Assembly (NCBI GenBank): GCA_965215225.1
Contig: OZ244039.1
Location: 1,725,353-1,789,352 of the forward strand
Length of the DNA stretch: 64,000 nucleotides
Direction: 5' to 3'
Source: Gammaproteobacteria bacterium
GTDB taxonomy: Bacteria > Pseudomonadota > Gammaproteobacteria > CBDBNL01 > JAAOII01
A program made the translations under genes and the position numbers. The first letter of the stretch is position 1. The number at the start of each line of letters is the position of its first letter. Under the pieces are notes generated by a model. It made no database searches and was not told where the DNA came from. It was given only the letters and a program-made list of their open reading frames with translations. Positions 5,820 to 58,064 of the stretch are shown here, piece by piece.

Positions 5820-6030
5820 CGCGAATTTGCATCATAAATGCATCACCTCTTTGACGGGATTATATAATCCCATCCAAGAAAATCAACAAAGAGGTTTCGT
5901 GTAAAAAGCATTATATTTCAAAAAAAGAACGAGCAATGATAGAAAAAATGAGGAGAGAAGGAAAGAGCATGCGCTTTATAGCTCGGCACTTAGATCCTTG
6001 TCCTTCTACTATTAGCCGAGAGATTCAACG
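5820..6030. repeat. inverted copy of the roughly 190-bp repeat element; it contains the palindrome GGGATTATATAATCCC
   Basis: Reverse complement of 1905-2095 at about 85% identity. The palindromic core gggattatataatccc at 5853-5868 recurs at 12642-12657. Confidence 0.8.
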
Positions 6031-6110
6031 CAATAGCGGGAACCGAGGCGGCCGTCATTTACAAGCGCATCAAACGATTCCCAAGCAAGAATGTCCTGTT
6101 TAATTGCCAT
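6012..6110 (-). pseudogene. truncated 5' fragment of the AlkD-like gene (paralog of 12730-13233), fused to the repeat element
   Basis: The minus strand reads MAIKQDILAWE..., the same first 11 codons as the 12730-13233 ORF (MAIRQDILAWD). It then diverges into repeat-element sequence and stops after 32 codons. Confidence 0.7.
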
Positions 6111-6261
6111 CTAAATGAAGTTAGGAAAGGCTCCTCTGTAAGCACTTGTGAGCATGTGTGAGCATTATAGTAAGTTAAGCGAGCCTAAGACAGAAGTTGA
6201 AAAAAGGATACCCCGAGTCTATTAGACCCAGGGTATCCAAGGTTCACCAAATAGGAAGATC

Positions 6262-7206
6262 CTACATCTTCATATCCTGATGATATTTAACAGCTCCCGC
6301 GTGGAAAGGAACGGCTGATTTCTCATCTGCCATGTCAGTTAATGCCGCCGGTAAAAACTCAACCAAGTCAGAATCGGCTGAGAAGATAGCTTCAGTCAAT
6401 GCATAGGCAATATCCTCTGCAAGACGACTGGAGCCTACCAGCTTGACCGCAACCCCAAAAGTCCTAACCGAATGGTCTTGACCCTTATAGGAACCAGCCG
6501 GAATACTAACCCATCTGTAATCTGGATTGCCACCAACTAATCTCCTAACCGGATTGCCGTCTATCCGCACTAACCTAAGCGGGCATAGATCCATCGCAGC
6601 CCTAAGCGCAGAAGCAGGATGATGAACCAGATAGATACCCGCATCTATTTCATTGTCGCAAAGTGCCTGTGTTTGTTGTTGTTGTTCTAGTTCAGACACT
6701 GCGCCAAAAGAGGTTGGCATCCACCTATAACCTATCATTAGTTTTTCCATAATGGCACGCATCTCCGACCCTACCGGACCTAGGTTCATCCGCTTGCCTC
6801 TTAGATCATAAAAAGTATCTACATCCACATCAGCACGGACCAAAACCGTGAAACTATAAGGATGGAAGGAAGCGAGGGTTCTTAGGTCGTGGAAAGCGCC
6901 ATCATCAGCAAAGAGATGAGAACCTTCATAAGCATGAGAGTGCCAGTCAGAACGAATTAGAGCTAGGTCTAATCCACCTGCCTTAAGGCTTTTAACATTA
7001 GCGGCCGTCTCTGCCATGCTATTAATCTCACAACCAATGCTGTGTTCGGCTGTCCTTTGGTTCACTGCTTGGCAAATGGAATCAGCTAGCTGATGATAGG
7101 CAGCTAGGGAATTGCCTGAACCAAGTCTAATGCTCTTTTGATCTGCAGCCATTAACGAAGTCACACTAACAACTGCTAGGATAGTAACGATTATTATTTT
7201 TTTCAT
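6262..7206 (-). CDS. TRAP transporter solute-binding protein, TAXI family (copy 1)
   Basis: 314 aa with a signal peptide. The GLDLALIRSDW motif resembles the TAXI G.D.A.VQSD core. It is about 95% identical to the 13397-14341 copy. Confidence 0.55.
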   Translation of the reverse strand: MKKIIIVTILAVVSVTSLMAADQKSIRLGSGNSLAAYHQLADSICQAVNQRTAEHSIGCEINSMAETAANVKSLKAGGLDLALIRSDWHSHAYEGSHLFADDGAFHDLRTLASFHPYSFTVLVRADVDVDTFYDLRGKRMNLGPVGSEMRAIMEKLMIGYRWMPTSFGAVSELEQQQQTQALCDNEIDAGIYLVHHPASALRAAMDLCPLRLVRIDGNPVRRLVGGNPDYRWVSIPAGSYKGQDHSVRTFGVAVKLVGSSRLAEDIAYALTEAIFSADSDLVEFLPAALTDMADEKSAVPFHAGAVKYHQDMKM

Positions 7207-7675: not shown

Positions 7676-7763
7676 TGGCGGAGAGGGAGGGATTCGAACC
7701 CCCGGACCCAAACGGGTCAACGGTTTTCAAGACCGCCGCATTCGACCACTCTGCCACCTCTCC
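7676..7763 (-). tRNA. tRNA-Ser (anticodon UGA)
   Basis: The reverse complement reads GGAGAGGTGGCAGAGTGGTCGAATGC-GGCGGTCTTGAAAACCGTTG-long variable arm-GGGGGTTCGAATCCCTCCCTCTCCGCCA. It has the TPsiC GTTCGAATC motif, a long extra arm typical of Ser, anticodon loop CTTGAAA and an encoded CCA. Confidence 0.85.
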
Positions 7764-8010: not shown

Positions 8011-9290
8011 CATTCTTTATTCCGCCTCTTCATTCCGTCCCTTTATTCCGCTTCTTTATTCCAGCTCTTTATTCCGCTTCTTCATTCCAGCTCTTTATTC
8101 CGTCCCTTCATCCCACCTCTTTATTTCGCTTCTCTATTCCGTCCCTTCATTCCACCTCTTTATTCTCTTTATTCCCCTCTTCATTCCACCTCTTTATTCC
8201 GTCTCCTTATTCCGCTTCTTCATTCCGCCTCTTTATTCCGCCTCTTTATTCCGCTCCTTTATTCCGTCCCTTTATTCCGCCTCTTTATTCCGTCCCCTTA
8301 TTCCGCTTCTTCATTCCACCTCTTTATTCCGCTTCTTCATTCCAGCTCTTTATTCCGTCCCTTCATTCCACCTCTTTATTCCGCCTCTTCATTCCGTCTC
8401 TTTATTCCGTCCCTTCATTCCACCTCTTTATTTCGCTTCTCTATTCCGTCTCTTTGTTCCGCCTCTTTACTTTGCCTCTCTATTCCGTCTCTTTGTTCCG
8501 CCTCTCTATTCCGTCTCTTTGTTCCGCCTCTTTATTCCACTTCTTCATTCCAGCTCTTTATTCCGCTTCTTCATTCCACCTCTTTATTCCGCCTCTTCAT
8601 TCCGTCCCTTTATTCCGCTTCTTTATTCCAGCTCTTTATTCCGTCCCTTCATTCTACCTCTTTATTTCGTTCCTTCATTCTGCCTCTCTATTCCGTCCCT
8701 TCATTCCGCCTCTTTATTCCCCTCTTCATTTCGCCTCTTTATTCCGCCTCTTTATTCCCCTCTTTATTCGGCCTCTTTATTCGGCCTCTTTATTCGGCCT
8801 CTTTATTCCACCTCTTTATTCCCCTCTTCATTCCGTCTCTTTATTCCGCCTCTTTATTCCGCCTCTTTATTCCGTCCCTTTATTCCGCCTCTTTATTTCG
8901 TCCCCTTATTCCGCTTCTTCATTCCACCTCTTTATTCCGTCCCTTCATCCCACCTCTTTATTTCGCTTCTCTATTCCGTCCCTTCATTCCACCTCTTTAT
9001 TCCGTCTCCCTATTCCGCCTCTTCATTCCGCCTCTTCATTCCGCCTCTTCATTCCGCCTCTTCATTCCGCCTCTTCATTCCGCCTCTTCATTCCGCCTCT
9101 TTATTCCCCTCTTTATTCGGCCTCTTTATTCCACCTCTTTATTTCGCCTCTTTATTCCGCCTCTTTATTCCCCTCTTTATTCGGCCTCTTTATTCCACCT
9201 CTTTATTCCGTCTCCTTATTCCGCTTCTTCATTCCGCCTCTTTATTCCGCCTCTTTATTCCGCTCCTTTATTCCGCCTCTTTATTCCAAT
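8011..9290. repeat. 15-bp tandem repeat array (consensus CTCTTTATTCCGCCT, about 85 degenerate copies)
   Basis: Period-15 repetition is visible directly, with variants such as cttcattccgcct and ctttattcggcct. All three plus-strand frames are open only because the unit lacks stop codons. Confidence 0.9.
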
Positions 9291-9450
9291 TCTTTCGCTG
9301 CGAGTGGAACTTAAGTGCTGATTTTTCATTCCGATTCTTTCGCTGCGAGTGGAACTTAAGTGCTGATCTTTCATTCCGATTCTTTCGCTGCGAGTGGAAC
9401 TTAAGTGCTGATCTTTCACTCCGCCTCTTTCGCTGCGAGTGGATCTCAGC
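9285..9450. repeat. about 53-bp tandem repeat x3 (ttcattccgattctttcgctgcgagtggaacttaagtgctgatc) abutting the clpB 3' end
   Basis: Three near-identical units and a fourth partial unit that overlaps the clpB stop region. Confidence 0.85.
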
Positions 9451-17869: not shown

Positions 17870-18148
17870 CGTGAGGGAGGGATGGAGGATAAGGAATGAG
17901 GAACGAAAGATGAGAGATGGAGGGTGAGGGATGAAAGATAAGGAATGAGGAATGAGGAATGGAGGATGAAAGATGAAGGATAGAGGATGAGGAATGAGGG
18001 ATGAGGAATGAGGAATGAGGGATGAGGAATGAGGAATGAGGAATGGAGGATGAAAGATGAAGGATAGAGGATGAGGAATGAGGGACGAAAGATGAGAGAT
18101 GAAGGATGAAGGATGAGAGATGAGAGATGAGAGATGAGAGATGAGAGC
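17870..18148. repeat. 8-bp microsatellite array (GATGARRG, about 35 units), upstream of ATPase copy 1
   Basis: Visible repetition: gatgaggaatgaggaatgagggatgaggaatg...gatgagagatgagagatgagag. Confidence 0.9.
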
Positions 18149-22344: not shown

Positions 22345-22615
22345 GGAGGGATGACATGATGAAGGATGAGGGATGAAAGATGAAAGATGAAAGATGAAAG
22401 ATGAAAGATGAAAGATGAAAGATGAAAGATGAAAGATGAAAGATGAGAGATGAGAGATGAGAGATGAGAGATGAAGGATGAAGGATGAAGGATGAGAGAT
22501 GAGGGATGACATGATGAAGAATGAGAGATGAAGGATGAAAGATGAAGGGTGAAAGGTGAAGAATGAAGAATGAAGGATGAGGGATGAGGGATGGAGGATG
22601 GAAGATGAAAGATAA
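22345..22615. repeat. 8-bp microsatellite array (GATGAAAG/GATGAGAG), upstream of ATPase copy 3
   Basis: gatgaaagatgaaagatgaaag... shows period 8. It is preceded by the same 60-bp block (ggactggtttttggtgaaagtg...ctggcgtgagggagggatg) as the array at 17870. Confidence 0.9.
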
Positions 22616-24039: not shown

Positions 24040-24870
24040 CTAGCCGAGATCATGGGTGGAGGATATTAATGATAGATTTAGTAAGCTAGCAAGAAACTGG
24101 GAAAGAGCTCGGAGCTGGTGAGCTAGGAGGATGGGTGGGGGATATTAATGATAGCAAAAATAGGCTAGCGAGAAATTGGAAATAGCTCGGAGCTGGTGAG
24201 CTAGGATGATGGATGGGACATATTAATCATAGATTTAATAGGCTAGCAAGAAACTGGAAATGGGTCGGAGCTGGTGAGCTAGGATGATGGATGGGGGATA
24301 TTTAGGGGATATTAATGATAGATTTAATAGGCTAGAAAATAGGCTAGCAAGAAACTGGAAATGGGGCGGAGCTGGTGAGCTAGGAGGATGGATGGGAGAT
24401 ATTTAGGGGATATTAATGATAGCAAAAATAGGCTAGAAAATAATCTAGCAATAAATTAGAAATGGGGCGGAGCTGGTGAACTAGGAGGATGGATGGGGGA
24501 TATTTAGGGGATATTAATGATAGCTTTAATAGGCCAGCAATAAATTGGGAATAGCTCGGAGCTGGTGAGCTAGGAGGATGGATGGGGGATATTTAGGGGA
24601 TATTAATGATAGCTTTAATAGGCCAGCAAGAAACTGGGAATAGCTCGGAGCTGGTGAGCTAGGATGATGGATGGGGGATATTTAGGGGATATTAATGATA
24701 GCAAAAATAGGCTAGAAAATAAGCTAGCAATAAATTGGAAATGGGGCGGAGCTGGTGAGCTAGGAGGATGGATGGGGGATGGGAAATATTAATGATAGCA
24801 AAAATAGGCTAGTAAATAGGCTAGTAAGAAATTGGAAATGGGTCGGAGCTGATGAGCTAGGATGGAGGCA
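24040..24870. repeat. about 88-100-bp tandem repeat array (about 9 units: ...ggctagcaagaaactggaaatggggcggagctggtgagctaggaggatggatgggggatatttaggggatattaatgatag...)
   Basis: Visible periodic recurrence of gagctggtgagctagga and atattaatgatag. Confidence 0.85.
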
Positions 24871-34224: not shown

Positions 34225-35214
34225 CTAAGGAATGAGGATAGTAGATGCGGTAGTCTTTCTCGCTGCCAGATCCTTATGTGCCCTGGCAACCTGGGCAAGA
34301 GGATATTCTTGATGAATAGATATTTCCAGTCCGGCGCGGCAAGCAGCAAAAAGACGGGCAGCGCTCTCGCGCCTTTCGCCCTCACTAGCAGCATAGTGCA
34401 TAAGGCTCGGGCGAGTCAAGAAGAGCGAACCCTTTTCCGCCAATAGACTTGGGGCAACCGGAGGCACTGGCCCTGAAGCATTGCCATAGGAAACCATCAT
34501 ACCGCGCGGCCTTAAGGCATCTAAGGACGACATAAATGTATCCTTGCCAATAGAATCATAAACCACATCCACTCCTTTTCCTTTGGTCAATTCTCTGACT
34601 TGCTTTGCCAGGTCCCCTTCACCGTGAATGATTACCTCATCACAACCATAGCTCCTAGCCAATTCAGCCTTTTCCTTTGTGCTAGCAGTTCCTATCACAA
34701 AGACCCCCAGTTGCTTTAACCATTGTAGCGCGATTAGACCCACCCCGCCAGCTATGGCGTGAAAGAGAACCAGATGGTCTCGCTTCACTCGAAAGGTTCG
34801 GTGGATAAGATATTCTGCTGTCATTCCCTTAAGCATCATAGCCGCCGCCTGCTTAGTGCTGATATGAGTTGGCAAGAGAATCAACTGCCCACTAGCTATA
34901 TGCCTCCTCTGACTATAAGAGCCTAGTGATGTGCAATAGGCTACCCTATCGCCTATATGAAAATCCCGAACCCTCTTGCCTACCTCCTCTACTATTCCAG
35001 CAGCCTCCATCCCCAAAACAGCCGGTAAATTAAGCGGATAAAGGCCGGTGCGATGATAGATGTCAATGAAATTAATTCCGACTGCCTCATGTCTGACGAC
35101 AACTTCTTCTTCTCCTAGCTCAGCAGCTAAGGGCGCATATTCCCACCTCAAGCAAGACTCATCGCCAGTCTGATAAAGGAAAATCGCCTTGTTCGATTTG
35201 TTCGCCTTGTTCAT
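34225..35214 (-). CDS. qor: NADPH:quinone oxidoreductase (zinc-type ADH/MDR superfamily)
   Basis: 329 aa with a GroES-like N-domain (VVVRHEAVGINFIDIY) and a Rossmann fold (LFHAIAGGVGLIALQWLKQLG). Confidence 0.8.
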   Translation of the reverse strand: MNKANKSNKAIFLYQTGDESCLRWEYAPLAAELGEEEVVVRHEAVGINFIDIYHRTGLYPLNLPAVLGMEAAGIVEEVGKRVRDFHIGDRVAYCTSLGSYSQRRHIASGQLILLPTHISTKQAAAMMLKGMTAEYLIHRTFRVKRDHLVLFHAIAGGVGLIALQWLKQLGVFVIGTASTKEKAELARSYGCDEVIIHGEGDLAKQVRELTKGKGVDVVYDSIGKDTFMSSLDALRPRGMMVSYGNASGPVPPVAPSLLAEKGSLFLTRPSLMHYAASEGERRESAARLFAACRAGLEISIHQEYPLAQVARAHKDLAARKTTASTILIP

Positions 35215-35575
35215 TTAATCTTAGCGGGTGAAGATGACCAAATGAAATTAACTACCTCTTCCACCGCCTCATGTCTGACGACAACCTCCTCTTCCTTTAG
35301 CTCAGCTGCTAAGGACGCATATTCCCACCTCAAGCAGGACTCATCGCCGGTCTGATGAAGAAAAATTGCCCTATTCATATTGTTCATCTAATCTTATCAG
35401 ATTGTTTGTTTAATCTTATCGGAGAAAGAAAGACCAAGTGTCTTCAACACTCCAACCAGTTCATCTAAAAAGTCAATGAAATTAACTACCACCTTCCACC
35501 GCCTCATGCCTAACACAAACTTCTTCCTCCCCCAGCTCAGCCAAAGGCGCGTCTTCCCATTGCATACAAGACTCA

Positions 35576-36244
35576 TCACCCGACCCCTGAGTAGACTTCC
35601 CACAGCGGGACGAGCCCAACGAGCAACGACCTGGTCCGGTCGAGGAAGGCCGGGGCGTCCGCCGCGACCTCGGCCGGTTCGCAGGTCCGCAGCGCACAGA
35701 GGTGCGGCCCCTCGAGGAAGCTCTCCGCTTTCGTCGCGTCGAGTTGGCGATCGATCTCGCCATACTTCTTGCAGGCGATCAAATCCGTCGAGGCGCCGAG
35801 CCCGACCTCCCGGCCGAGCGTCACGACGCGCGCGGCGTCGCGTCGAAGTGCCGCCGCCATCGGAGCGTCTTCGCTCAGCAGCGGGGGCGGTACATAGAGT
35901 CCGGCCCAGACCCCATCGGGCTGCAATCCGACGAAGAGCTGCGCGTCTTCCTTCTTCCGGCCTTCCCGGTAGAAGAGCGCCAGCATGTTGTTCTTGTAGG
36001 GGCTCTGCCCTCTTGCAAACCGCATGTCCCGATTGATCCGGGTGATGGTCCTGTTGACGTTCGGCCGGATCTCGCAATCGGGAATGTGCTCGCGCAGGGC
36101 CGGCCCGATATCGCCGACAGCGCTGCGCAAGGGACCAAGCAGGTTGCTCTCGTAGCGATCGCGGTTCGCCTCGAACCACGCTTTGTCGCGATGCGCGTTC
36201 AGATCGTCGAGAAAACGGAACGTCTCCGCCGAAAAATACTTCAT
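35576..36244 (-). CDS. DUF2461 (TIGR02453) family protein, on a high-GC horizontally acquired island
   Basis: 222 aa. The N-terminus FSAETFRFLDDLNAHRDKAWFEANRDRYE matches the DUF2461 signature (F.FL..L..NN...WF..N...Y). The local GC is about 66% against about 42% in the flanks. Confidence 0.7.
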   Translation of the reverse strand: MKYFSAETFRFLDDLNAHRDKAWFEANRDRYESNLLGPLRSAVGDIGPALREHIPDCEIRPNVNRTITRINRDMRFARGQSPYKNNMLALFYREGRKKEDAQLFVGLQPDGVWAGLYVPPPLLSEDAPMAAALRRDAARVVTLGREVGLGASTDLIACKKYGEIDRQLDATKAESFLEGPHLCALRTCEPAEVAADAPAFLDRTRSLLVGLVPLWEVYSGVG

Positions 36245-36387
36245 AGTGTCACCTCTTCCTTCGCCTTGTATTTGACGATAACTTCTTCTTCCCCCAACTC
36301 AGCCAAAGTCTCCTCCTTTTCCTCCCACTTCAAGCAAGTCTCATCGCCGGTCTGATAAAGGAAAATCGCCTTGTTCATCTTGTTCAT
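36241..36387 (-). CDS. 48-aa leader ORF derived from the qor N-terminus, translationally coupled to the DUF2461 gene (ATGA overlap)
   Basis: Minus-strand translation gives MNKMNKAIFLYQTGDETCLKWEEKEETLAELGEEEVIVKYKAKEEVTL-stop. Its TGA overlaps the ATG of the DUF2461 gene (ctATGAag). Confidence 0.4.
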   Translation of the reverse strand: MNKMNKAIFLYQTGDETCLKWEEKEETLAELGEEEVIVKYKAKEEVTL

Positions 36388-36849
36388 TTAATCTTATCAA
36401 GTTGTTTGTTTAATTTTATCGGAGAAAGAAAGGCCCAGTGTCTTCAACACTCCATCCAATTCATCCAAATAATCAATGAAATTAACTACCATCTTCCTTC
36501 GCCTCATGTTTGACGATAACTTCTTCTTCCCCCAGCTCAGCCAAAGGCTCCTCCCTCTCCTCCTCCCACTTCAAGCAGGACTCATCGCCGGTCTGATAAA
36601 GGAAAATCGCCTTATTCATATTGTTCATCTAATCTTATCAGGTTGTTTGTTTAATTTTATCGGAGAAAGAAAGACCCAGCGTCTTCAACACTCCATCCAA
36701 TTCTTCTTCTCCTAGCTCAGCAGCTAAGGGCGTATCCTCCCACTTCAAGCAAGTCTCATCGCCGGTCTGATGAAGGAAAACCGCCTTGTTCGATTTGTTC
36801 GCCTTGTTCGCCTTCGCCTTATTCACCTTATTCACCTTATTCATCCTGC

Positions 36850-37722
36850 TCATTTAATCTTATCGGGGGAAGAAAGACCCAGTGTCTTCAACACTCCATC
36901 CAGTTCATCTAAGGAGTTGTAATGAACTACCATCTTTCCTTTACCACTATGGGTATATTGAAACTTAACCTGCACCCCCAATTTGTCGCTAATATCTTCT
37001 TGAAGTGACAGAATATTGACATCCATTTGCCGCCGTTTGCGCGGCCCCTTATGAAAGCGAATAACCAGCTTCTCTGTTTGACGGACGGTTAGTCTCTTGT
37101 TAACAACTTCCTCAGCAGCCCTTATTTGTTCCTTGTCCTCAAGCCCCAATAGCACCTTAGCATGTCCTAGTTCCAATTTGCCAGCCTTAACCATTTCTCC
37201 TACTGGGTCTTCCAACCTTAACAAGCGAATAATATTTGCCACAGCCACGCGCGACATACCTACCATGTCCGCCAGCTGTTTCTGAGTATAGTTGTAATTA
37301 GAGCGTAAGGATTCAAAGGCTTCTGCTTGTTCATAAGCATTAAGGTCATCGCGCTGAACATTCTCAACCAGCGCCAGAACAGCAAGCGACCTGTCATCTA
37401 CTTCACGCACTACCGCAGGCATATGACTTAGACCCACCATTTTTGCCGCCCGCCACCTTCTTTCACCAGCAATCAGCTCATACTCACTTGCTGTCTCCTG
37501 CTTAGGGCGAACTACTATGGGTTGAAGGACTCCCTGTGTCTGAATAGAAGAAGCCAGTTCTCTTAATGAATCGGTTCTAAAGTCATTGCGAGGCTGATAA
37601 GGATTAGGATGAATCTCATTAAGGGAAAGCTCAATAAGACTCTTGTCTTCTACCTTCTCTACATTAATGTCTTCTAAGAGAGCAGACAGATCCTTTCCTA
37701 AGGCTTTTCTTTTCTTTGCCAT
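36850..37722 (-). CDS. parB: chromosome partitioning protein ParB
   Basis: ParB-box residues LIAGERRWRAAKMVGL are present, with an HTH, and parA lies upstream. Confidence 0.9.
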   Translation of the reverse strand: MAKKRKALGKDLSALLEDINVEKVEDKSLIELSLNEIHPNPYQPRNDFRTDSLRELASSIQTQGVLQPIVVRPKQETASEYELIAGERRWRAAKMVGLSHMPAVVREVDDRSLAVLALVENVQRDDLNAYEQAEAFESLRSNYNYTQKQLADMVGMSRVAVANIIRLLRLEDPVGEMVKAGKLELGHAKVLLGLEDKEQIRAAEEVVNKRLTVRQTEKLVIRFHKGPRKRRQMDVNILSLQEDISDKLGVQVKFQYTHSGKGKMVVHYNSLDELDGVLKTLGLSSPDKIK

Positions 37723-45334: not shown

Positions 45335-46990
45335 TGAGAAGGGAAGAAAAGAAGCAGATTAGCCAAAGGGGGCTAGTTGGAGTGGGCCTGTCCTAGCTGT
45401 TTGGGTTGAGGCTAGGGAAGCAGATTAACCAAAGGGGCTAGTTGGAGTGGGACTGTCCTAGCCGTTTCGGTTGAGGCTAGGGAAGCAGATTAGCCAAAGG
45501 GGGTTAGTTGGAGTGGGCCTGTCCTAGCTGTTTGGGTTGAGGCTAGGGAAGTAAATTAGCCAAAGGGGGCTGGTTGGAATGGGTCTGTCCTAGCCTTTTG
45601 GGTTGAGGCTAGGGAAGTAAATTAGCCAAAGGGGGCTGGTTGGAATGGGTCTGTCCTAGCTGTTTGGGTTGCAGCTAGGGAAGCAAATTAGCCAAAGGGG
45701 GCTAGTTGGAGTGGGTTTGTCCTAGCTGTTTGGGTTGAGGCTAGGGAAGCAAATTAGCCAAAGGGAGCTAGTTGGAGTGGGACTGTCCTAGCCGTTTCGG
45801 TTGAGGCTAGGGAAGTAAATTAGCCAAAGGGGGCTGGTTGGAGTGGGTCTGTCCTAGCCTTTTGGGTTGAGGCTAGGGAAGTAAATTAGCCAAAGGGGGC
45901 TGGTTGGAATGGGTCTGTCCTAGCCTTTTGGGTTGAGGCTAGGGAAGTAAATTAGCCAAAGGGGGCTGGTTGGAATGGGTCTGTCCTAGCTGTTTGGGTT
46001 GAGGCTAGGGAAGCAGATTAGCCAAAGGGGGCTAGTTGGAGTGGGCCTGTCCTAGCCGTTTCGGTTGAGGCTAGGGAAGCAAATTAACCAAAGGGGGCTA
46101 GTTGGAGTGGGACTGTCCTAGCCGTTTCGGTTGAGGCTAGGGAAGCAGATTAACCAAAGGGGGCTAGTTGGAGTGGGACTGTCCTAGCTGTTTGGGTTGA
46201 GGCTAGGGAAGCAAATTAGCCAAAGGAAGCTAGTTGGAGTGGGACTGTCCTAGCTGTTTGGGTTGCAGCTAGGGAAGCAGATTAACCAAAGGGGGCTAGT
46301 TGGAGTGGGCCTGTCCTAGCTGTTTGGGTTGAGGCTAGGAAAGCAAATTAGCCAAAGGGGGCTAGTTGGAGTGGGTCTGTCCTAGCCGTTTGGGTTGAGG
46401 CTAGGAAAGCAGATTAACCAAAGGGGGTTAGTTGGAGTGGGCCTGTCCTGGCCGTTTCGGTTGAGGCTAGGGAAGCAGATTAGCCAAAGGGGTCTAGTTG
46501 GAGTGGGTCTGTCCTAGCTGTTTGGGTTGAGGCTAGGGAAGTAAATTAGCCAAAGGGGGCTAGTTGGAGTGGGACTGTCCTAGCTGTTTGGGTTGAGGCT
46601 AGGGAAGCAAATTAGCCAAAGGGGGCTAGTTGGAGTGGGCCTGTCCTAGCTGTTTGAGTTGAGGCTAGGGAAGCAGATTAGCCAAAGGGGGCTAGTTGGA
46701 GTGGGCCTGTCCTAGCTGTTTGAGTTGAGGCTAGGGAAGCAAATTAACCAAAGGGGGCTAGTTGGAGTGGGCCTGTCCTAGCTGTTTGGGTTGCAGCTAG
46801 GGAAGCAAATTAGCCAAAGGGGGTTAGTTGGAGTGGGTCTGTCCTAGCCGTTTCGGTTGAGGCTAGGGAAGCAAATTAACCAAAGGGGGCTAGTTGGAGT
46901 GGGTCTGTCCTAGCTGTTTGGGTTGAAGCTAGGGAAGCAGACTAGCCAAACGGGTTTATTTGGAGTGCCCCTGTCCTAGCCGTTTCGGTT
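45335..46990. repeat. 66-bp tandem repeat array (about 25 units; consensus GGCTAGGGAAGCAGATTAGCCAAAGGGGGCTAGTTGGAGTGGGCCTGTCCTAGCTGTTTGGGTTGA)
   Basis: Visible periodicity. Each unit has inverted elements gctaggg/cctagc and derives from the 3'-terminal coding sequence of the adjacent GLUG gene. Confidence 0.9.
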
Positions 46991-46994
46991 GGAG

Positions 46995-48929
46995 CTATTG
47001 AAGCAGATCGTCCAAACGAGCCCGGTCTAGTTCGGGTTTGCCACTCGCATTCAAAGACCACCAATCACGCCAATCGTCAGGAGCTAGCGGAGTGCAGCGA
47101 ATGGCGGGATATTGACTTGAAGTGCCGAAGTTCCAGATGAGATTGCCAGGGGTTTGTTCATCTGACTCTATGCTCCCACTGTTATCTTCATCACACCAGA
47201 CCGCCAATGGCACGTTCCCATCACCAAACAGATCTGTGTTATCGTCCCAAGTGGCATAAATATCTGTATAGTTAGTTGGACTGCGGAGATCGCTAGTGGT
47301 CTTGGCTTCACCATGATTGCCATTAGTGACGCCACTAGTATCACTGTCCCAATAGGAAGCAACTCCAGTCCCACTTCCTTGCCCAACCAGCGGCATAGTA
47401 GCACTGCCTGAGACCATGTAAGAATAAGCAACCCGACCAGCAGCAAAATCTCCCACCAGACCACCCGTAGGAATACCCCCTCTCACCTCACCCACCACAA
47501 CCGAAGAAGAATGAATTCGAGCACCTAGACCAGCCCCCACCAGACCACCTGTACTACTCTGTCCACTCACCTGAGCCGCTATAGCCGAAGAAGAAAAAAT
47601 GCTAGCATTTTGACCAAATCCTACCAGTCCGCCTGAATAAATACCAGCTACATCTGACGCTCTCACCTCAGCTGCCACAACCGAAGAAGAATAAATTCGA
47701 GCATTTGAACCATCCCCCACCAGACCACCTATAGTACTACTCCCGCTCACCTCAGCTGCCACCACCGAAGAAGAAACAATCCGAGCCGAGTTACCATCCC
47801 CCACCAGACCACCTACCCCAAACTTACCTATCACTGCCTCGGCACGAAGAATCAAATTGCGAATGGTTGCACCAGGGGCAAGATGCCCAAATAAACCCAC
47901 ACAATCTTCACCTGAACGACTAATGCTCAAATTGCTAATCATAAAACCATTGCCTTCAAAGGTCCCACTAAAAGCAGTTCCTTGACATCCTCTGGCAACT
48001 CTATCTGTATCTTGACCCAAGGGCTGCCAGCCTTTGCCGCTATCATAATCCACATAGTCTGCCAGACTTATATTATCAACCAGCTCATAACCAGAACAAG
48101 AAGTGATGCCGCCGGTACCACCACAGCCAGTGGTGTCGGCCGCCCCAGTATCCAATAGCTTGCGCCCGCTACCATCCAGTTGATGACGCACCGCATTTAA
48201 TTCCTCATGTGTTCTTATCTCTATCAACCCATCCCCATCATCATCTACATCAACATCATCTAGATAGGCATCATTATCATCATTATCATCTACACTATCC
48301 GCTCGCCTATCTCCATCCGTATCCAGCCCCGACCGAATACCGTCCCCGGCGTGATCATCATGATTCTCAGGCCAAACAAAAACTATATTCACCTCCTGCT
48401 CCCTGCTATCGCTAAGAATCCCAGTAATCTGAAACTTCCAATCTCGGTCAGCTAGCCCAGTAAAATCATAGCTGTCATTAGCAAATTCGTCTATGTTGAT
48501 ACTTCTCTCTACAACCTCGCTTCCACTAGTTGCCGTAATCTTCAAAGAAGTGAAACTGCTAAAGTCCGATTGGCTGCCTATTTGAAACCCACCCCTTATA
48601 GGAGCAAAAGTGAGACTCGCGTTAAAAACTCCCAGAACCATCGCGCCGTTTCCTGGACCATTGCCATCCATCGAACTATTGTTTACCGGACCACCATCAC
48701 CCGAACTGCCACCACCCCCGCCGCCAGCACAAGCAGTAAGAACAACTGATAAGAAACCAGCCGCAACTAAGAAGAAGAGGAACCGTCCCAGCCTACTAAG
48801 CAGAGTCAGGGGGGCATGATAAGAGAAATAGAAGCAGAACCTAGCCGCTCCGAATAATAAGAATTGGGTTGCTTTTGCCATTTTTATATTTGCCATAATA
48901 GTTCCTTTTACCATTTTTACATTCTCCAT
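46995..48929 (-). CDS. surface lipoprotein with TSP3-like and GLUG repeats (paralog 2, 644 aa)
   Basis: Same N-terminal region, lipobox LTAC and conserved C-terminal domain as paralog 1, with a different central region. It has Asp-rich DDNDDNDAYLDDVDVDDDGDGL and GLUG units. Confidence 0.75.
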   Translation of the reverse strand: MENVKMVKGTIMANIKMAKATQFLLFGAARFCFYFSYHAPLTLLSRLGRFLFFLVAAGFLSVVLTACAGGGGGGSSGDGGPVNNSSMDGNGPGNGAMVLGVFNASLTFAPIRGGFQIGSQSDFSSFTSLKITATSGSEVVERSINIDEFANDSYDFTGLADRDWKFQITGILSDSREQEVNIVFVWPENHDDHAGDGIRSGLDTDGDRRADSVDDNDDNDAYLDDVDVDDDGDGLIEIRTHEELNAVRHQLDGSGRKLLDTGAADTTGCGGTGGITSCSGYELVDNISLADYVDYDSGKGWQPLGQDTDRVARGCQGTAFSGTFEGNGFMISNLSISRSGEDCVGLFGHLAPGATIRNLILRAEAVIGKFGVGGLVGDGNSARIVSSSVVAAEVSGSSTIGGLVGDGSNARIYSSSVVAAEVRASDVAGIYSGGLVGFGQNASIFSSSAIAAQVSGQSSTGGLVGAGLGARIHSSSVVVGEVRGGIPTGGLVGDFAAGRVAYSYMVSGSATMPLVGQGSGTGVASYWDSDTSGVTNGNHGEAKTTSDLRSPTNYTDIYATWDDNTDLFGDGNVPLAVWCDEDNSGSIESDEQTPGNLIWNFGTSSQYPAIRCTPLAPDDWRDWWSLNASGKPELDRARLDDLLQ

Positions 48930-49319: not shown

Positions 49320-50900
49320 AAAAGAAGCAGATTAGCCAAAGGGGGCTAGTTGGAGTGGGTCTGTCCTAGCTGTTTGGGTTGAAGCTAGGGAAGCAAATTA
49401 GCCAAAGGGGGCTAGTTGGAGTGGGCCTGTCCTAGCTGTTTGGGTTGAGGCTAGGGAAGCAGATTAACCAAAGGGGCTAGTTGGAGTGGGACTGTCCTAG
49501 CCGTTTCGGTTGAGGCTAGGGAAGCAGATTAGCCAAAGGGGGTTAGTTGGAGTGGGTCTGTCCTAGCTGTTTGGGTTGCAGCTAGGGAAGCAGATTAACC
49601 AAAGGGGGCTAGTTGAAGTGGGCATGTCCTAGCTGTTTGGGTTGAAGCTAGGGAAGCAAATTAACCAAAGGGGGCTAGTTGGAGTGGGTCTGTCCTAGCC
49701 TTTTGGGTTGAGGCTAGGGAAGTAAATTAGCCAAAGGGGGCTAGTTGGAGTGGGTCTGTCCTAGCTGTTTGGGTTGCAGCTAGGGAAGCAAATTAGCCAA
49801 AGGGGGCTAGTTGGAGTGGGTCTGTCCTAGCTGTTTGGGTTGCAGCTAGGGAAGCAGATTAGCCAAAGGGGGCTGGTTGGAGTGGGTCTGTCCTAGCCGT
49901 TTGGGTTGCAGCTAGGGAAGCAAATTAGCCAAAGGGAGCTAGTTGGGGTGGGGCTGTCCTAGCTGTTTGGGTTGCAGCTAGGGAAGCAAATTAGCCAAAG
50001 GGGGCTAGTTGGAGTGGGCCTGTCCTAGCTGTTTGGGTTGAGGCTAGGGAAGCAAATTAGCCAAAGGGGGCTAGTTGAAGTGGGCATGTCCTAGCTGTTT
50101 GGGTTGAAGCTAGGGAAGCAAATTAACCAAAGGGGGCTAGTTGGAGTGGGCCTGTCCTAGCTGTTTCGGTTGAAGTTGAGGGTCTCAGCCAAAGCAAGTT
50201 GTCAGTTTGAGAAGGGAAGAAAAGAAGCAGACTAGCCAAAGGGGGCTAGTTGGAGTGGGTCTGTCCTAGCTGTTTGGGTTGCAGCTAGGGAAGCAAATTA
50301 GCCAAAGGGGGCTAGTTGGAGTGGGACTGTCCTAGCCGTTTCGGTTGAGGCTAGGGAAGCAGATTAGCCAAAGGGGGCTAGTTGGAGTGGGTCTGTCCTA
50401 GCTGTTTGGGTTGAAGCTAGGGAAGCAAATTAGCCAAAGGGGGCTAGTTGGAGTGGGTCTGTCCTAGCTGTTTGGGTTGCAGCTAGGGAAGTAAATTAAC
50501 CAAAGGGGGTTAGTTGGAGTGGGCCTGTCCTAGGTGTTTAGGTTGAGGCTAGGGAAGCGAATTAGCCAAAGGGAGCTAGTTGGAGTGAGTCTGTCCTAGC
50601 TGTTTGGGTTGAGGCTAGGGAAGCAAATTAACCAAAGGGGGTTAGTTGGAGTGGGCCTGTCCTAGCTGTTTGGGTTGAAGTTGAGGGTCTAAGTCGAAGC
50701 AAGTTGTCAGTTTGAGAAGGGAAGAAAAGAAGCAGACTAGCCAAAGGGGGCTAGTTGGAGTGGGTCTGTCCTAGCTGTTTCGGTTGAAGTTGAGGGTCTA
50801 AGCCAAAGCAAGTTGTCAGTTTGAGAAGGGAAGAAAAGAAGCAGACTAGCCAAATGGGGCTAGTTGGAGTGGGTCTGTCCTAGCCGTTTGGGTTGAGGCT
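49320..50900. repeat. 66-bp tandem repeat array, second copy (about 24 units in 3-4 sub-arrays)
   Basis: Same unit as 45335-46990. Sub-array boundaries are marked by gttgtcagtttgagaagggaagaaaagaagcag. Confidence 0.9.
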
Positions 50901-53061
50901 AGGGAAGTAGATTGTCTAAACGGTCCCAGTTTAATCTGGGTTTGGCAGGCGTCCCCTCCAAAGACCACCAGTCACGCCAGTCTTCGGGATCTAGCGGAGT
51001 GCAGCGAATGGCGGGATATTCATCCGACTCGCCGAAATCCCAGATGAGATTGTCATTGGTTCGTTCATCTGATTCTATACTCCCACTATTATCCTTATCA
51101 CACCAGACCGCCAGTGGCTCATCACTCATCCCATCGTTAAATATATTTATGTCATCGTCCCACTCTTCATAAATCCCTGTATAGTCAGTTGGCTCGCGAA
51201 GATCATTGCTGGTCTTGGCTTCACCATAATTGCCATTAGTGACGCCACTAGTCTCACTGTCCCAATAAGAAGCAACTCCAGTCCCACTTCCTCTCCCAAC
51301 CAGCATAGAAGTCATACTGCCTGAGACCACATAAGAATAAGCAACCTGGCTAAAGGTCAATGCTCCCACCAAACCGCCTAGATCAATACTCCCTTCTAGC
51401 TCACCCACCACAACCGAAGAAGAAACAATCTGAGTACCACTACCAGATCCTATCAGACCGCCTAGCTGACCAGTTCCTCTCACCTCGCCTGCCACAACTG
51501 AAGAAGAAGCAATCCGAGCCGATGTACCATCCCCTACCAAACCCCCTATAGACTGACCCCCTCTCAGACTACCCAGCACAACCGAAGAAGAAGCAATCCA
51601 AACTGATGTACCAGACCCTACCAGACCGCCTATACTAAGTTTAAAATTATCAATCTCGCTCACCACCCCAGCTGCCACAACCGAAGAAGAAGCAATCCGA
51701 GCCGATGAACCCAACCCCACCAAACCCCCTACAGCATTATCCCCTTTCACCTCACCCACCATAACCGAAGAAGAAACAATCCGAGATCCTGAACCATCCC
51801 CCACCAGAGTGCCTACTCTATTCCTAGCTGTCACTGCCTCGGCACTAAGAGTCAGATTGCGAATCTCTGAACTCGCGGTTATATGACCAAACAGACCTAC
51901 ACAATCCTCATCTGAACGACTAATATTCAAATCACTAATCGTCCAGCCATTGCCTTCAAAAATCCCATCAAAAGCATCTCCTTGACATCCAATGGTGCCA
52001 CTAGCTGTGTCATGACCCAAGGGTTGCCAGCCTTTGCCTCCATCAGCGCTCATATAGGTTGCAAGACTGATATTTGCAACCAGCTCATAGCCAGAACAAG
52101 AAGCAGTAGTGCCATTGCCACAGCCAGTGGAGTCGAGCGCCTCGCTCGCCGTTAGCTTCCTCCCTACGCCATTCAAAGCATAACGCACCGCATCCAGCTG
52201 CGCCGCTGTGGCTATCTCTATCAACCCATCGCCATCATCATCTATGTCCGTTCCATCCATCGAATTGTCATTATCGCAATCGTTATCCTGGACACATTCA
52301 GCTGCTGCCTCATCTCCATCGCGGACATGATCATCATCGCAATCGGCTTTCATTACACAGGCTGCCGCTACTTCATCCCCATCGCGGACATGATCATCGT
52401 CGCAATCGGCTTTTATCACACAGGCTGCCGCTACTTCATCCCCATCGCGGACATGATCATCGTCGCAATCGGCTTTTATCACACAGGCTGCCGCTACTTC
52501 ATCTATATCCATGACACTATCCCCATCGCAATCCACCAACAGCGAACATCTCACCTCATCTGAATTAGTCTGTCGCTCTCTCTCATCAACATCATCCAAC
52601 CCATCATTATCATCATCCTCATCACAAACATCGCCCTCACCATCCTTATCTGTATTAGTCTGGTCGGGATTTGCAACAAGCGGACAATTATCCATAGCAT
52701 TCTCCATGCCATCATTATCATCATCACTGGAAGCATCGCTTCCCGAACCATTGTCGCCCGAACCATTGTCGCCCGGACCACTGTCTCCCGAACCATCGGT
52801 CATCGAACCATTGCCTATTAAACCGATGCTGCTTGAACTGCCGCCAGCACAAGCAGTGAGAACAGCTGATAAGAAACCAGCCGCAACTAAGAAGAAGAGG
52901 AACCGTCCCAGCCTACTAAGCAGAGTCAGGGGGGCATGATCTAGGCTCGGGGCTAGATAAGGGGCCAGATAAGAAAAATAGCAGCGAAACCTAGCCGCCC
53001 CGAATAAAAATCGATTTACATCTGTCATATTTACATTTGTCATAATAATTCCCTCCCGCAT
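50899..53061 (-). CDS. surface lipoprotein with TSP3-like and GLUG repeats (paralog 3, 720 aa)
   Basis: Canonical TSP3 repeats (DDDNDGMENAMDNCPLVANPDQTNTDKDGEGDVCDEDDDNDGLDD), a 20-aa x3 internal repeat (CVIKADCDDDHVRDGDEVAAA), GLUG units and the conserved C-terminal domain. Confidence 0.75.
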   Translation of the reverse strand: MREGIIMTNVNMTDVNRFLFGAARFRCYFSYLAPYLAPSLDHAPLTLLSRLGRFLFFLVAAGFLSAVLTACAGGSSSSIGLIGNGSMTDGSGDSGPGDNGSGDNGSGSDASSDDDNDGMENAMDNCPLVANPDQTNTDKDGEGDVCDEDDDNDGLDDVDERERQTNSDEVRCSLLVDCDGDSVMDIDEVAAACVIKADCDDDHVRDGDEVAAACVIKADCDDDHVRDGDEVAAACVMKADCDDDHVRDGDEAAAECVQDNDCDNDNSMDGTDIDDDGDGLIEIATAAQLDAVRYALNGVGRKLTASEALDSTGCGNGTTASCSGYELVANISLATYMSADGGKGWQPLGHDTASGTIGCQGDAFDGIFEGNGWTISDLNISRSDEDCVGLFGHITASSEIRNLTLSAEAVTARNRVGTLVGDGSGSRIVSSSVMVGEVKGDNAVGGLVGLGSSARIASSSVVAAGVVSEIDNFKLSIGGLVGSGTSVWIASSSVVLGSLRGGQSIGGLVGDGTSARIASSSVVAGEVRGTGQLGGLIGSGSGTQIVSSSVVVGELEGSIDLGGLVGALTFSQVAYSYVVSGSMTSMLVGRGSGTGVASYWDSETSGVTNGNYGEAKTSNDLREPTDYTGIYEEWDDDINIFNDGMSDEPLAVWCDKDNSGSIESDERTNDNLIWDFGESDEYPAIRCTPLDPEDWRDWWSLEGTPAKPRLNWDRLDNLLP

Positions 53062-55447: not shown

Positions 55448-56521
55448 GAGCCGCCGAACAAAACTTCTATCAAGATAGTTTTTCCAATACCACACCCAAT
55501 AGCCAGTAAAAGAGAAGCTGCCCCTTTGCCCTAAGGCAGCCTTGTTTCCTAAGGATAGTAGGGTGAGGAATTCCTGCTGAGGATGATAAGAGTTCAATTC
55601 CTTTTCCGCTGCCATGGCCAAGAGGTTATGGCCAAGACAGGGAGCCTGCCGAACGGCAAAGACCCCTGCTTTTGGTAAATTATGTCCTGTCAGACTAGCT
55701 ATATCCCCAGCCGCAAAAATATTAGGATGAGAAAGAGATTGTAAGCGGTCATTTACCTTGACAAAACCGTCTTCATCAAGCTGTAAAGGGCTCTCTTTAA
55801 GCCAATGAGGAGGAACCCCATTGGTTGCCCAAAAGACATAGTCTGCCGCCACTCTGGTCTCAGTAGAATCAGCCGACCGAATCAGCAGACTCTTATCTTG
55901 CCATGCCATGACCCAGCTTTGTTCTCTCAGTTGAACATTTGCATCGCTCAACTTTTGTCTAGCCAGCTTGACTAGTCGCTCAGCATAACCGGGCAATAGG
56001 TTATCGGCTGTAATTAAGCTCAGCTGGCAGTCTTTGCGCCGCCAAGCAAGTGCCAGGGCAACCTCCAGGCTAGCCGCCCCACCGCCCACTACAGCAAGAT
56101 GCATCCGACCTTTATGCTCAAGTAGGGATTCCCACTTTGAGATAAATTCAGTGACCGGTTTGAGTGGCAAGGAATCTTCTGTTTGGGTATTGGCAGGCAA
56201 GGAAGAAGACACACCCAGATTAAGCGAGGCAATATCAAAACCCAGCGCCCCCCTATCCGTGATAATGGAATCATCATTAATAGCCTCGACCCTAGCAAGG
56301 AAAAACTCAACCCCGACTTTCTGACAGAGTCGCGGCAGGCTGATACTGATGTCTTCTATCCCATAGTGACCGGCGATGAAGCCAGGTAGCATGCCAGTAT
56401 AAAGCAGCGCCTGGGATTCGCTAACCAGAGTAATATGGTGAGCACAGGGTTTGAGAGCTCTTAATACCAGTGCATGGGTATGGCCGCCGCCAAGAAGGAC
56501 TATCTTTTTCTTTGTCATCAA
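55433..56521 (-). CDS. FAD-dependent pyridine nucleotide-disulfide oxidoreductase family protein (SQR/NDH-2-like)
   Basis: An N-terminal dinucleotide-binding fingerprint KKIVLLGGGHTHALVL and a second motif HLAVVGGGAASLEVALAL, 362 aa. Confidence 0.5.
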   Translation of the reverse strand: MMTKKKIVLLGGGHTHALVLRALKPCAHHITLVSESQALLYTGMLPGFIAGHYGIEDISISLPRLCQKVGVEFFLARVEAINDDSIITDRGALGFDIASLNLGVSSSLPANTQTEDSLPLKPVTEFISKWESLLEHKGRMHLAVVGGGAASLEVALALAWRRKDCQLSLITADNLLPGYAERLVKLARQKLSDANVQLREQSWVMAWQDKSLLIRSADSTETRVAADYVFWATNGVPPHWLKESPLQLDEDGFVKVNDRLQSLSHPNIFAAGDIASLTGHNLPKAGVFAVRQAPCLGHNLLAMAAEKELNSYHPQQEFLTLLSLGNKAALGQRGSFSFTGYWVWYWKNYLDRSFVRRLLGNA

Positions 56522-57055
56522 TAGGCTATTTAATCCGCAAATGATAATATCATATGGCTAAAAATTATTAAACTTAGCATTTAATTATGACAAGAAAATG
56601 GCAAGGATCTGCAATACCAGTGCATGGTTATGGCCGCCGCCAAGAAGGACTATCTTTTTCTTTATCATCAATAGGCTATTTAATCCGCAAATGATAATAT
56701 CATATGGCTAAAAATTATTAAACTTAGCATTTAATTATGACAAGAAAATGGCAAGGATCTGCAATACCAGTGCATGGGTATGACCGCCGCCAAGAAGGAC
56801 TATCTTTTTCTTTGTCATCAACAGGCTATTTAATCCGCAAATGATAATATCATATGGCTAAAAATTATTAAACTTAGCATTTAATTATGACAAGAAAATG
56901 GCAAGGATCTGCAATACCAGTGCATGGGTATGGCCGCCGCCAAGAAGGACTATCTTTTTCTTTATCATCAATAGGCTATTTAATCCGCAAATGATAATAT
57001 CATATGGCTAAAAATTATTAAACTTAGCATTTAATTATGACAAGAAAATGGCAAG
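56455..57055. repeat. 150-bp tandem repeat x4 spanning the divergent promoter region and the first codons of both flanking genes
   Basis: The unit ...caataccagtgcatgggtatggccgccgccaagaaggactatctttttctttgtcatcaataggctatttaatccgcaaatgataatatcatatggctaaaaattattaaacttagcatttaattatgacaagaaaatggcaaggatctg recurs at 56461, 56611, 56761 and 56911. Confidence 0.9.
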
Positions 57056-58064
57056 GATCTGCGCTTTAATCACTGGCGGCACCATTGGGATGATAACCAG
57101 AGGCAACTCCAGTCTTATGCCAGCCCAGCCTCTAGACTATAGCAGGTTCTTCCCCCATCTTGCTGAGCTGGCTGAAATAGACTATCATCTGGTCTTCTAT
57201 TTAGACAGCAGTGCAGTCGGCGCGCCTCAATGGCGCGAGCTAGCGACGGCTATAGAGAAACGGCTGGATAAATATGATGGCTTTGTGGTCTGTCATGGGA
57301 CGGATACCATGGCATACTCGGCTTCTGCCTTGGCCTATGCCTTTGGCAGCTGTCTTAATCATCCTATAGTTTTTACTGGCTCCCAGCGAACGCCTGATTC
57401 GCCAGCTAGTGATGCCCAAGCCAACCTAGTTGCTTCTATCAAGTTGGCTTCGAGCCAGCTAGCGGAAGTGGCTATAGCCTTTGACAAGCTAGCCTGGCGA
57501 GCCTGCCGCACCATTAAGGTATCTAACTCTCAAGACGCTGCCTTCGTCTCCCCCAAGACACCACCTCTAGCCCGGCTGGATACAAGATGCACCTTGACTT
57601 TAACCCCAACGGCTAGAAGACAATCTCCCCAGCAAAAGACTGGCAAGCCAATCAGCGATTTCAGCAATCGCTTAGCCTTCTTCTATGCCGTCCCTTCTCA
57701 TGAACCAACCAGTTTAATTCAGCAGGCGAAGAGCGCCAGCTGGCAAGTAGGATTAGTAGTGGGTTTAGGCAATGGTAATCTTCCCCCGCGATTTCTGTCC
57801 TTCATTCGAGCAGCAAAAGAACATCATAAGCAGATCATCATCGCCTCAGCAAATTGTGACCCATCTCCCACTTCCTATCCACCATTAAGAGAAGCACTAG
57901 AACAGGGCGCTATCTATGCTGGCGGCTATAGCCTGCCGGGCCTATGGACGAAACTTTGCTGGCTGATACCCCAAAGTGAAAAGCTCAAAAACAACCAACA
58001 AGAAGCCTTCTTCAAAGCGGCATTGGCAAAATCCTATGTAGGAGAATTAGAAATAGAACCTTAA
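57048..58064 (+). CDS. L-asparaginase (type I, AnsA-like)
   Basis: The LITGGTIGM threonine motif and the HGTDTMAYSASAL signature are collinear with E. coli AnsA, at 338 aa. Confidence 0.75.
   Translation: MARICALITGGTIGMITRGNSSLMPAQPLDYSRFFPHLAELAEIDYHLVFYLDSSAVGAPQWRELATAIEKRLDKYDGFVVCHGTDTMAYSASALAYAFGSCLNHPIVFTGSQRTPDSPASDAQANLVASIKLASSQLAEVAIAFDKLAWRACRTIKVSNSQDAAFVSPKTPPLARLDTRCTLTLTPTARRQSPQQKTGKPISDFSNRLAFFYAVPSHEPTSLIQQAKSASWQVGLVVGLGNGNLPPRFLSFIRAAKEHHKQIIIASANCDPSPTSYPPLREALEQGAIYAGGYSLPGLWTKLCWLIPQSEKLKNNQQEAFFKAALAKSYVGELEIEP

Follow-up and report, generated by a model that had tools for sequence, protein, structure and literature searches.

Double illegitimate recombination was described experimentally in Acinetobacter baylyi by Hulter and Wackernagel (2008, as cited in PMC10291446), and the short-patch form of double illegitimate recombination (SPDIR) at microhomologies that is treated in bioRxiv 10.1101/2023.11.22.568220 concerns laboratory events of 3 to ~100 bp. 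SPDIR joins fully heterologous DNA to the recipient at a pair of microhomologies, displacing what lies between, and needs neither an anchor of real homology nor the functions of a mobile element; the event that we propose here would be alike in this. Our subject is a 64,000-nt stretch of contig OZ244039.1 (assembly GCA_965215225.1, positions 1,725,353 to 1,789,352; hereafter the window), in which a GC-rich open reading frame (ORF) of the DUF2461 family lies inside a tandem array between parB and qor. We consider it likely that this ORF came from a high-GC donor and was integrated into the array, which already existed, by double illegitimate recombination at microhomologies. In the proposed course of events, a 691-nt fragment of a high-GC bacterium, consisting of one complete gene with its ribosome-binding site and nothing else, would have entered a 45%-GC chromosome and would have been joined by illegitimate recombination at two microhomologies inside the tandem array of parB-3′/qor-5′ units, replacing ~150 nt of the array without any mobile-element machinery. 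A later C→A mutation would then have added an ATGA stop/start overlap with the 48-aa array ORF that lies upstream. The sequences show the foreign origin, the extent of the insert and its joints, the empty sites in relatives, the presence of the insert in a second assembly and the direction of the substitutions, whereas the recombination mechanism is read from the scars that it appears to have left, and the route of DNA entry, expression and any selective value of the gene are what we infer beyond those scars.

Foreign origin and later history of the DUF2461 segment

The DUF2461 coding sequence (CDS) has a GC content of 64.7% (66, 46 and 82% at the first, second and third codon positions, or GC1, GC2 and GC3, respectively), as against a GC3 of 42–47% in qor, parB, parA and mpl and a GC content of 45.4% for the whole window. 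Among the 300-nt intervals of the 64 kb, GC values of at least 0.57 were found solely at 35451-36300, which bears out the description of a high-GC DUF2461 ORF of 222 aa that had been given in the first-pass annotation, made from the sequence letters before any database search.

The origin of the segment could be traced closely. The proteins nearest to the window's DUF2461 protein were 97, 89, 87 and 84% identical to it, and at the nucleotide level blastn matched positions 36264..35574 to two contigs, L086 and L004, at 97.25 and 97.1% identity, respectively, over exactly 691 nt. Beyond those 691 nt the window was unrelated in sequence to either contig, and no donor remnants were found outside 35574..36264. 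L086 is a contig of 5.05 Mb (ERZ25070786 ctg150457l), of which the 16.7 kb that were fetched have 69% GC, and since its DUF2461 gene has 66% GC, the gene fits these surroundings; L004 is an independent SPAdes contig in which the flanks have 64–67% GC. The first-pass annotation had proposed capture by horizontal transfer and had anticipated best matches in high-GC taxa, and both statements are upheld by these donor-like copies (97% nucleotide identity, in contexts of 66–69% GC), the former also by the empty sites in relatives of the recipient described below. The donor-type loci are alike beyond the ORF, as a third such locus, L005, aligns with L086 over 1010 nt and into the downstream gene. 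When the changes attributed to the recipient are removed, the inserted sequence that results has, in its 691 positions, 3 differences from L086 and 4 from L004, and therefore the donor belonged to the L086/L004 population. A scan of GTDB representative genomes placed the protein's nearest named relatives in metagenome-assembled genomes of Dadabacteria/Thermodesulfobacteriota, at 68–74% identity, and the aldehyde dehydrogenase that neighbours the donor gene has named matches only at 65–67% identity, from mixed phyla. The donor-like L086 and a second strain of the recipient (L091, see below) are found in one metagenome assembly, ERZ25070786.

Another DUF2461 gene, whose product is 89% identical in amino acid sequence to the window protein, was observed at 5987..6726 of L001 (ERZ19489004 contig_1, 1.36 Mb). 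The segment that holds it is 741 nt long and 87% identical to L086, takes in 57 nt of the gene that lies downstream in the donor, has ~65% GC between flanks of ~45–55% GC, and adjoins an IS3-type transposase. This segment may represent a second, independent transfer of the DUF2461 gene.

The recipient is a bacterium of 45% GC, represented by a chromosome-scale contig of 1.8 Mb, and is probably a gammaproteobacterium; the nearest named relatives of its ParB are gammaproteobacterial (56–57% identity). Its closest relatives have the same gene order, hisD-hisC-gidB-parA-parB-qor-mpl-sdh, without DUF2461. In L089, whose ParB is 86% identical to that of the window, the parB stop codon directly overlaps the qor start codon as ATGA (position 5845 of L089) and there is no extra unit, L087 and L088 (ParB 91% identical) lack DUF2461 and have a single, degenerate extra unit, and L090 (ParB 72% identical) has neither the array nor DUF2461. 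The extra unit of L087, at 5874..6043, has in-frame stops, and the qor that follows parB in L090, at 5885..6442, was called at 185 aa with an ADH_N domain only and may be truncated or decaying. Because these relatives have empty sites, the expansion of the array and the insertion are specific to the lineage of the window. The insertion is present there in at least two strain-level haplotypes, the window and L091 (ERZ25070786 ctg147362l, 48.7 kb), which has the same array, insert and junctions and is a different haplotype, 97.9% identical to the window over 6.2 kb. The island, whose presence in relatives the first-pass annotation had left to be checked, is thus carried by L091 and by none of L087, L088, L089 and L090.

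The direction of the substitutions was polarized by comparison of the window with L086 and L004, with L005 as the outgroup. Sixteen substitutions are private to the window relative to L086/L004, 15 of which are GC→AT; L091 has all 16, and its insert has two extra substitutions, both of them also GC→AT. Along the recipient branch of the CDS, measured from a majority-rule ancestor, 16 of the 18 changes are GC→AT, and the divergence of the insert from the donor lineage stands at 2.3%. At compositional equilibrium, GC→AT and AT→GC changes are equally frequent, and the observed excess is therefore far above expectation. The same 18 changes comprise 12 synonymous and 6 non-synonymous ones, the expected synonymous fraction under random GC→AT change being 0.40 (P = 0.019). 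This synonymous excess lends modest support to purifying selection on the transferred DUF2461 gene, which would hence be a working gene. Taken together, the bias of the changes and the synonymous excess indicate a gene that is resident in a low-GC genome, apparently under constraint. The gene is drifting toward the AT-rich composition of the recipient and is still intact.

Junctions, expression and layout of the locus

On the minus strand, parB is followed by five diverged repeat units (A to E) and then by qor, and the 222-aa ORF lies between the third and fourth units, in the sense orientation within the gidB-parA-parB-...-qor gene string. The units are all copies of the ancestral parB-3′/qor-5′ junction, with a qor N-terminal fragment (MNK..AIFLYQTGDESCLKWE..LAELGEEEV..HEA..) followed by a parB-like tail (..LDELDGVLKTLGLSFSDKIK..). 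Open ORFs of 48–71 aa are retained in four of the five units. The locus bears several marks of slippage, namely the 241-nt units, a 22-nt duplication and 9-nt repeats of NK codons, and these 9-nt repeats code for NK-rich runs in unit A and in qor.

The insert extends from 20 nt 5′ of the ATG to 2 nt 3′ of the stop codon. At the left joint, the donor reads ..ATCAGCGAAGGAAGAGGTGACACC.. and unit B, our proxy for the pre-insertion sequence of unit C, reads ..GAGGCGAAGGAAGATGGTAGTT.., the two having in common the 11-nt stretch GCGAAGGAAGA, or up to 14 nt when a 1-nt difference is tolerated. At the right joint, the donor (..GGGGTCGGGTGATGGTG..), the array (..CCGGCGATGAGTC..) and the relatives (..CGGGTGATGAGTC..) have a common stretch of 4 to 9 nt; had the original unit resembled those of the relatives, the microhomology there would be the 8-nt GGGTGATG that occurs in L087, L089 and L090, or the 9-nt CGGGTGATG that L089 and L090 have. 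Units C and D are spaced 768 nt apart, versus the usual 232–241 nt, which would mean that ~150–160 nt of the array were lost. An intact C–D array was not found in two scans of JGI metagenome contigs, one with the left junction and one with a motif confined to units B and C. When the locus was assessed for double illegitimate recombination, microhomology was present at both joints and homology to the donor-type loci was limited to the 691 nt.

The minus strand from parB to qor, insert included, showed neither a sigma-70-like promoter nor a terminator-like site, and parB and qor are coupled by the ATGA overlap in the relatives, so that read-through from the parAB-qor partition operon is likely. 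The DUF2461 mRNA would most likely come from such read-through of the resident operon, and its translation would most likely begin from the gene's own imported Shine-Dalgarno sequence, as the 20 imported upstream nucleotides contain the GAGGTGA of the donor. No unusual RNA folding was seen near the start codon (z = 0.73). The TGA of the 48-aa leader ORF does overlap the DUF2461 ATG as ATGA, just as the first-pass annotation had stated, and its further suggestion of reliance on the resident start region for expression holds in part: transcription from the resident operon is reasonable for an insert without a promoter, whereas the gene brought its own GAGGTGA and the overlap is of later date. 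The overlap was absent at insertion, where the donor reads CCATGCAG, and the leader TGA arose through a C→A change at 36241 (Q2K) that is specific to the recipient. At the other end of the gene, the start of the 59-aa ORF of unit D (35397..35576) lies on the DUF2461 stop codon. The features of the locus are listed in Table 1.

Table 1. Positions in the window of the DUF2461 segment, its joints, the array units and the two bordering genes.
Feature	Position	Strand	Description
parB, 290 aa	36850..37722	−	Pfam ParB_N, HTH_ParB, ParB_C; 3′ end is the source of the parB-like tails of the array units
Array unit A, 71-aa ORF	36638..36853	−	qor 5′ fragment with NK-repeat expansion, fused to parB-like tail
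Array unit B, 48-aa qor-N-terminus ORF	36482..36628	−	Sister of unit C, 91% identical
Array unit C (left flank, "leader" ORF), 48 aa	36241..36387	−	TGA overlaps DUF2461 ATG
Transferred donor segment, 691 nt	35574..36264	−	blastn span versus L086/L004; homology stops at both ends
Left junction microhomology GCGAAGGAAGA	36254..36264	−	11 nt exact, donor upstream region versus unit B
Shine-Dalgarno-like GAGGTGA, 4 nt before ATG	36249..36255	−	Read from sequence, also in L086 and L004; putative function
DUF2461 CDS, 222 aa, intact	35576..36244	−	
Right junction microhomology	35574..35582	−	GATG exact, 4 nt; up to 8–9 nt from relatives
Partial array unit D (right flank)	35397..35573	−	Begins at GDES codons of qor fragment, then parB-like tail
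Array unit E, 58-aa ORF	35211..35387	−	
qor, intact zinc-type quinone oxidoreductase, 329 aa	34225..35214	−	Pfam ADH_N and ADH_zinc_N; array units derive from its 5′ end

Alternative explanations for the insertion

In the first-pass annotation, the gene was seen as flanked by direct repeats of ~60 bp that were consistent with a target duplication, and insertion into one unit by a mobile element or a site-specific event, with a target-site duplication of ~60–90 bp, has in its favour that the GDE(S/T)C..WE..LAELGEEEV..EA segment is present on both sides of the insert. The repeats do exist, but the flanking copies (units C and D) are ~94–100 nt long and share 71% identity, with a 6-nt indel between them, no other pair of units being so dissimilar, and the left copy is nearest to unit B, to which it is 91% identical. 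As the insert is only 2.3% diverged from the donor lineage, flanks that differ to this extent are far older than the insertion, and judged by their sequences the flanking repeats are two older, different units of the parB/qor junction array rather than a target duplication. There were also no terminal inverted repeats (no inverted repeats of any kind at 34800-37200), and no transposase or integrase within 6 kb on either side of the insert, where all Pfam-annotated genes are housekeeping genes. Integron attC, attI and IntI were absent at the insert and nearby, and with only 2 nt of insert after the stop codon an attC could not be accommodated. The features of a classical genomic island were lacking, in that the sole tRNA of the window is at 7679-7763 and no integrase lies near the insert; in addition, no parS site is present in the window, and therefore the array is not a parS array. 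An insertion with target duplication is thus very improbable. A different sequence of events, in which a larger donor fragment was inserted first and then trimmed to the ORF by microhomology-mediated deletions, would make the present junctions deletion scars. It would accord with the unusually neat ends of the insert (no more than 20 nt from the start codon and 2 nt from the stop codon), with a locus prone to duplication and slippage, as its 241-nt units, 22-nt duplication and 9-nt repeats attest, in a window full of tandem arrays, and with L001, where a similar donor-type segment has another 3′ end, 57 nt into the downstream gene. However, trimming needs at least three events instead of one, the junctions are identical in L091 and the window with no intermediate found, and donor-derived remnants are absent outside the 691 nt, so that we regard it as unlikely, though clearly less so than target duplication.

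An assembly chimera or contamination, with high-GC reads mis-joined into a low-GC contig, might be suspected because the donor-like genome and the recipient share the assembly ERZ25070786 and because chimeric joins often occur at microhomologies. Against this, two precise joins would be needed, leading back into the same array in the same orientation, the 16 private substitutions are absent from both donor-type sequences, the same structure is found in a second contig of another assembly with 3 further differences, and the ORF is intact. Since 15 of the 16 private substitutions are GC→AT, what is seen is a GC-rich gene evolving in an AT-biased genome and not a chimeric join, and we rejected the chimera on the basis of the shared AT-biased substitutions and the second assembly, its likelihood being close to nil. 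Hardly any credence can be given either to the view that the recipient lineage had the gene from the outset and its relatives lost it, or that the transfer ran from low to high GC. Nothing specific favours it, other than that empty sites could in principle be deletions, and it has to contend with a GC3 of 82% in a genome whose genes have a GC3 of ~45%, with the fit of the gene to the composition of L086, where it continues into a conserved downstream region, with the clean parB-qor ATGA overlap of the relatives, which bears no scar, and with substitutions that, given L005 as the outgroup, lead away from the donor state and toward that of the recipient.

Integration of the ORF by double illegitimate recombination remains the explanation that we favour, although several points weigh against it. 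The lengths of the microhomologies were derived from sister units and relatives, which stand in for units C and D as they were before the insertion, and a later gene conversion from unit C into unit B could have made the 11-nt match look longer than it was. The insert measures 691 nt, versus sizes of 3 to ~100 bp reported for SPDIR, and its near-exact fit to one ORF could have come from a larger insertion that was later trimmed. Finally, the low divergence of the insert between haplotypes might reflect haplotype switching in metagenome assembly.

This last point concerns the uneven divergence between the window and L091, which is 1.1% in parA, 3.8% in parB, 3.7% in unit A, 0.27% in units B–C, 0.29% in the insert, 0% in units D–E, 4.85% in qor and 1.8% in mpl. 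Over the tract 36637..35141 there are 3 differences in ~1500 nt, as against 3.7–4.9% in the adjoining parB, unit A and qor (Fisher P = 6e-18). The tract is the product either of recent homologous recombination between strains, or a sweep, or of a haplotype switch by the assembler. A more far-reaching idea, which we put forward as a speculation with low odds, is that the parB-qor array is a landing pad for promoterless ORFs that arrive via microhomology and are expressed from the partition operon, the DUF2461 tract having then undergone a gene-specific sweep. If that were true, small-genome bacteria of this community could gain useful genes from co-resident bacteria without a mobile element.

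Gene family, other repeats and comparison with known systems

The Pfam DUF2461 profile (PF09365) matched the window protein with E = 1.2e-26 and 94.4 bits, versus a gathering threshold of 22.8, the match being confined to the N-terminal half of the profile (positions 1–114 of 208), and the NCBIfam profile TIGR02453 scored 89 bits, below its curated cut-off of 105.4. Hence, of the two profile matches anticipated in the first-pass annotation, that to Pfam DUF2461 was obtained, under the accession PF09365 and not PF09946, and that to TIGR02453 fell short. Because TIGR02453 is below its cut-off and only the N-terminal half of the Pfam profile is matched, the protein belongs to a divergent subfamily. 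It aligned end to end and without gaps with 21 full-length relatives, and all 51 invariant columns of the resulting 22-sequence alignment are kept in it without truncation, as are the conserved core residues of the subfamily (RINRDMRF...PYK and LVPLW...Y). The closest known proteins are those of the DUF2461/TIGR02453 family and of the YktB/DUF1054 fold (PDB 2a8e, 3mqz), and the fold of the window protein is YktB/DUF1054-like; neither group has a member with an established function. By sequence, no PDB entry matched the window protein, searches of PADLOC and PHROGs gave no match, and a literature search for DUF2461 returned incidental mentions only. Some distant DUF2461 proteins (P0078 and P0104) are fused to a GIY-YIG nuclease domain (PF01541), and these fusions are hints of a tie between the family and nucleic acids.

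Tandem repeats are unusually common in this genome, and the window has many of them away from the parB-qor array. One array, at 8014..9287, consists of ~99 copies of a 13-nt unit (TCTTTATTCCGCC) and is almost free of purines on the plus strand (GC skew −0.7, AT skew −0.65), with long ORFs overlapping in three frames; it is followed, at 9278..9443, by 3.7 copies of a 45-nt unit. One 66-nt unit (GAAGCAAATTAGCCAAAGGGGGCTAGTTGG...) forms two arrays, at 45351..47005 and 49324..50896, with 25 and ~20 copies, respectively, at 90–92% identity. Both arrays are upstream of large ORFs on the minus strand, 46995..48929 and 50899..53061, within which there are repeats of 84–87 nt. Further tandem arrays are at 24048..24862 (G-rich units of 78–101 nt), 17909..18145 (21-nt unit, 11 copies), 22358..22613 (7-nt unit, 36 copies) and 56463..57062 (150-nt unit, 4 copies, 98% identity). 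Such crowding of tandem arrays fits a genome that is prone to slippage and illegitimate joining.

Natural transfers are seldom so well resolved, in that the donor lineage, both joints to the base, the empty sites and the direction of later mutation are all available, and the locus provides a dated example of amelioration in progress. Among the systems with which it can be compared, an integron cassette is likewise a single promoterless ORF, in the sense orientation and downstream of resident transcription, but here there is no attC and no attI/IntI nearby, and the junctions are microhomologies and not a recombination core site. Homology-facilitated illegitimate recombination, reportedly described by de Vries and Wackernagel in 2002, similarly integrates foreign DNA with an illegitimate joint at a microhomology. 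It requires a homologous anchor of ~100 bp or more on one side, whereas homology to the donor locus stops here at both ends of the 691 nt. Microhomology-mediated double illegitimate recombination depends on DNA uptake and on annealing at the replication fork, and RecA, RecJ and others suppress it. The closest counterpart, SPDIR, differs in that its events were obtained in the laboratory and were shorter, whereas ours is a natural event, read from sequence, and for the SPDIR class a left microhomology of 11 nt is long. The event is a clean but ordinary horizontal gene transfer, of a kind that is already known and not a new kind of system, and its significance would be that a single functional ORF can be moved between unrelated bacteria by microhomology alone, at a length of 691 nt that exceeds the described laboratory SPDIR events.

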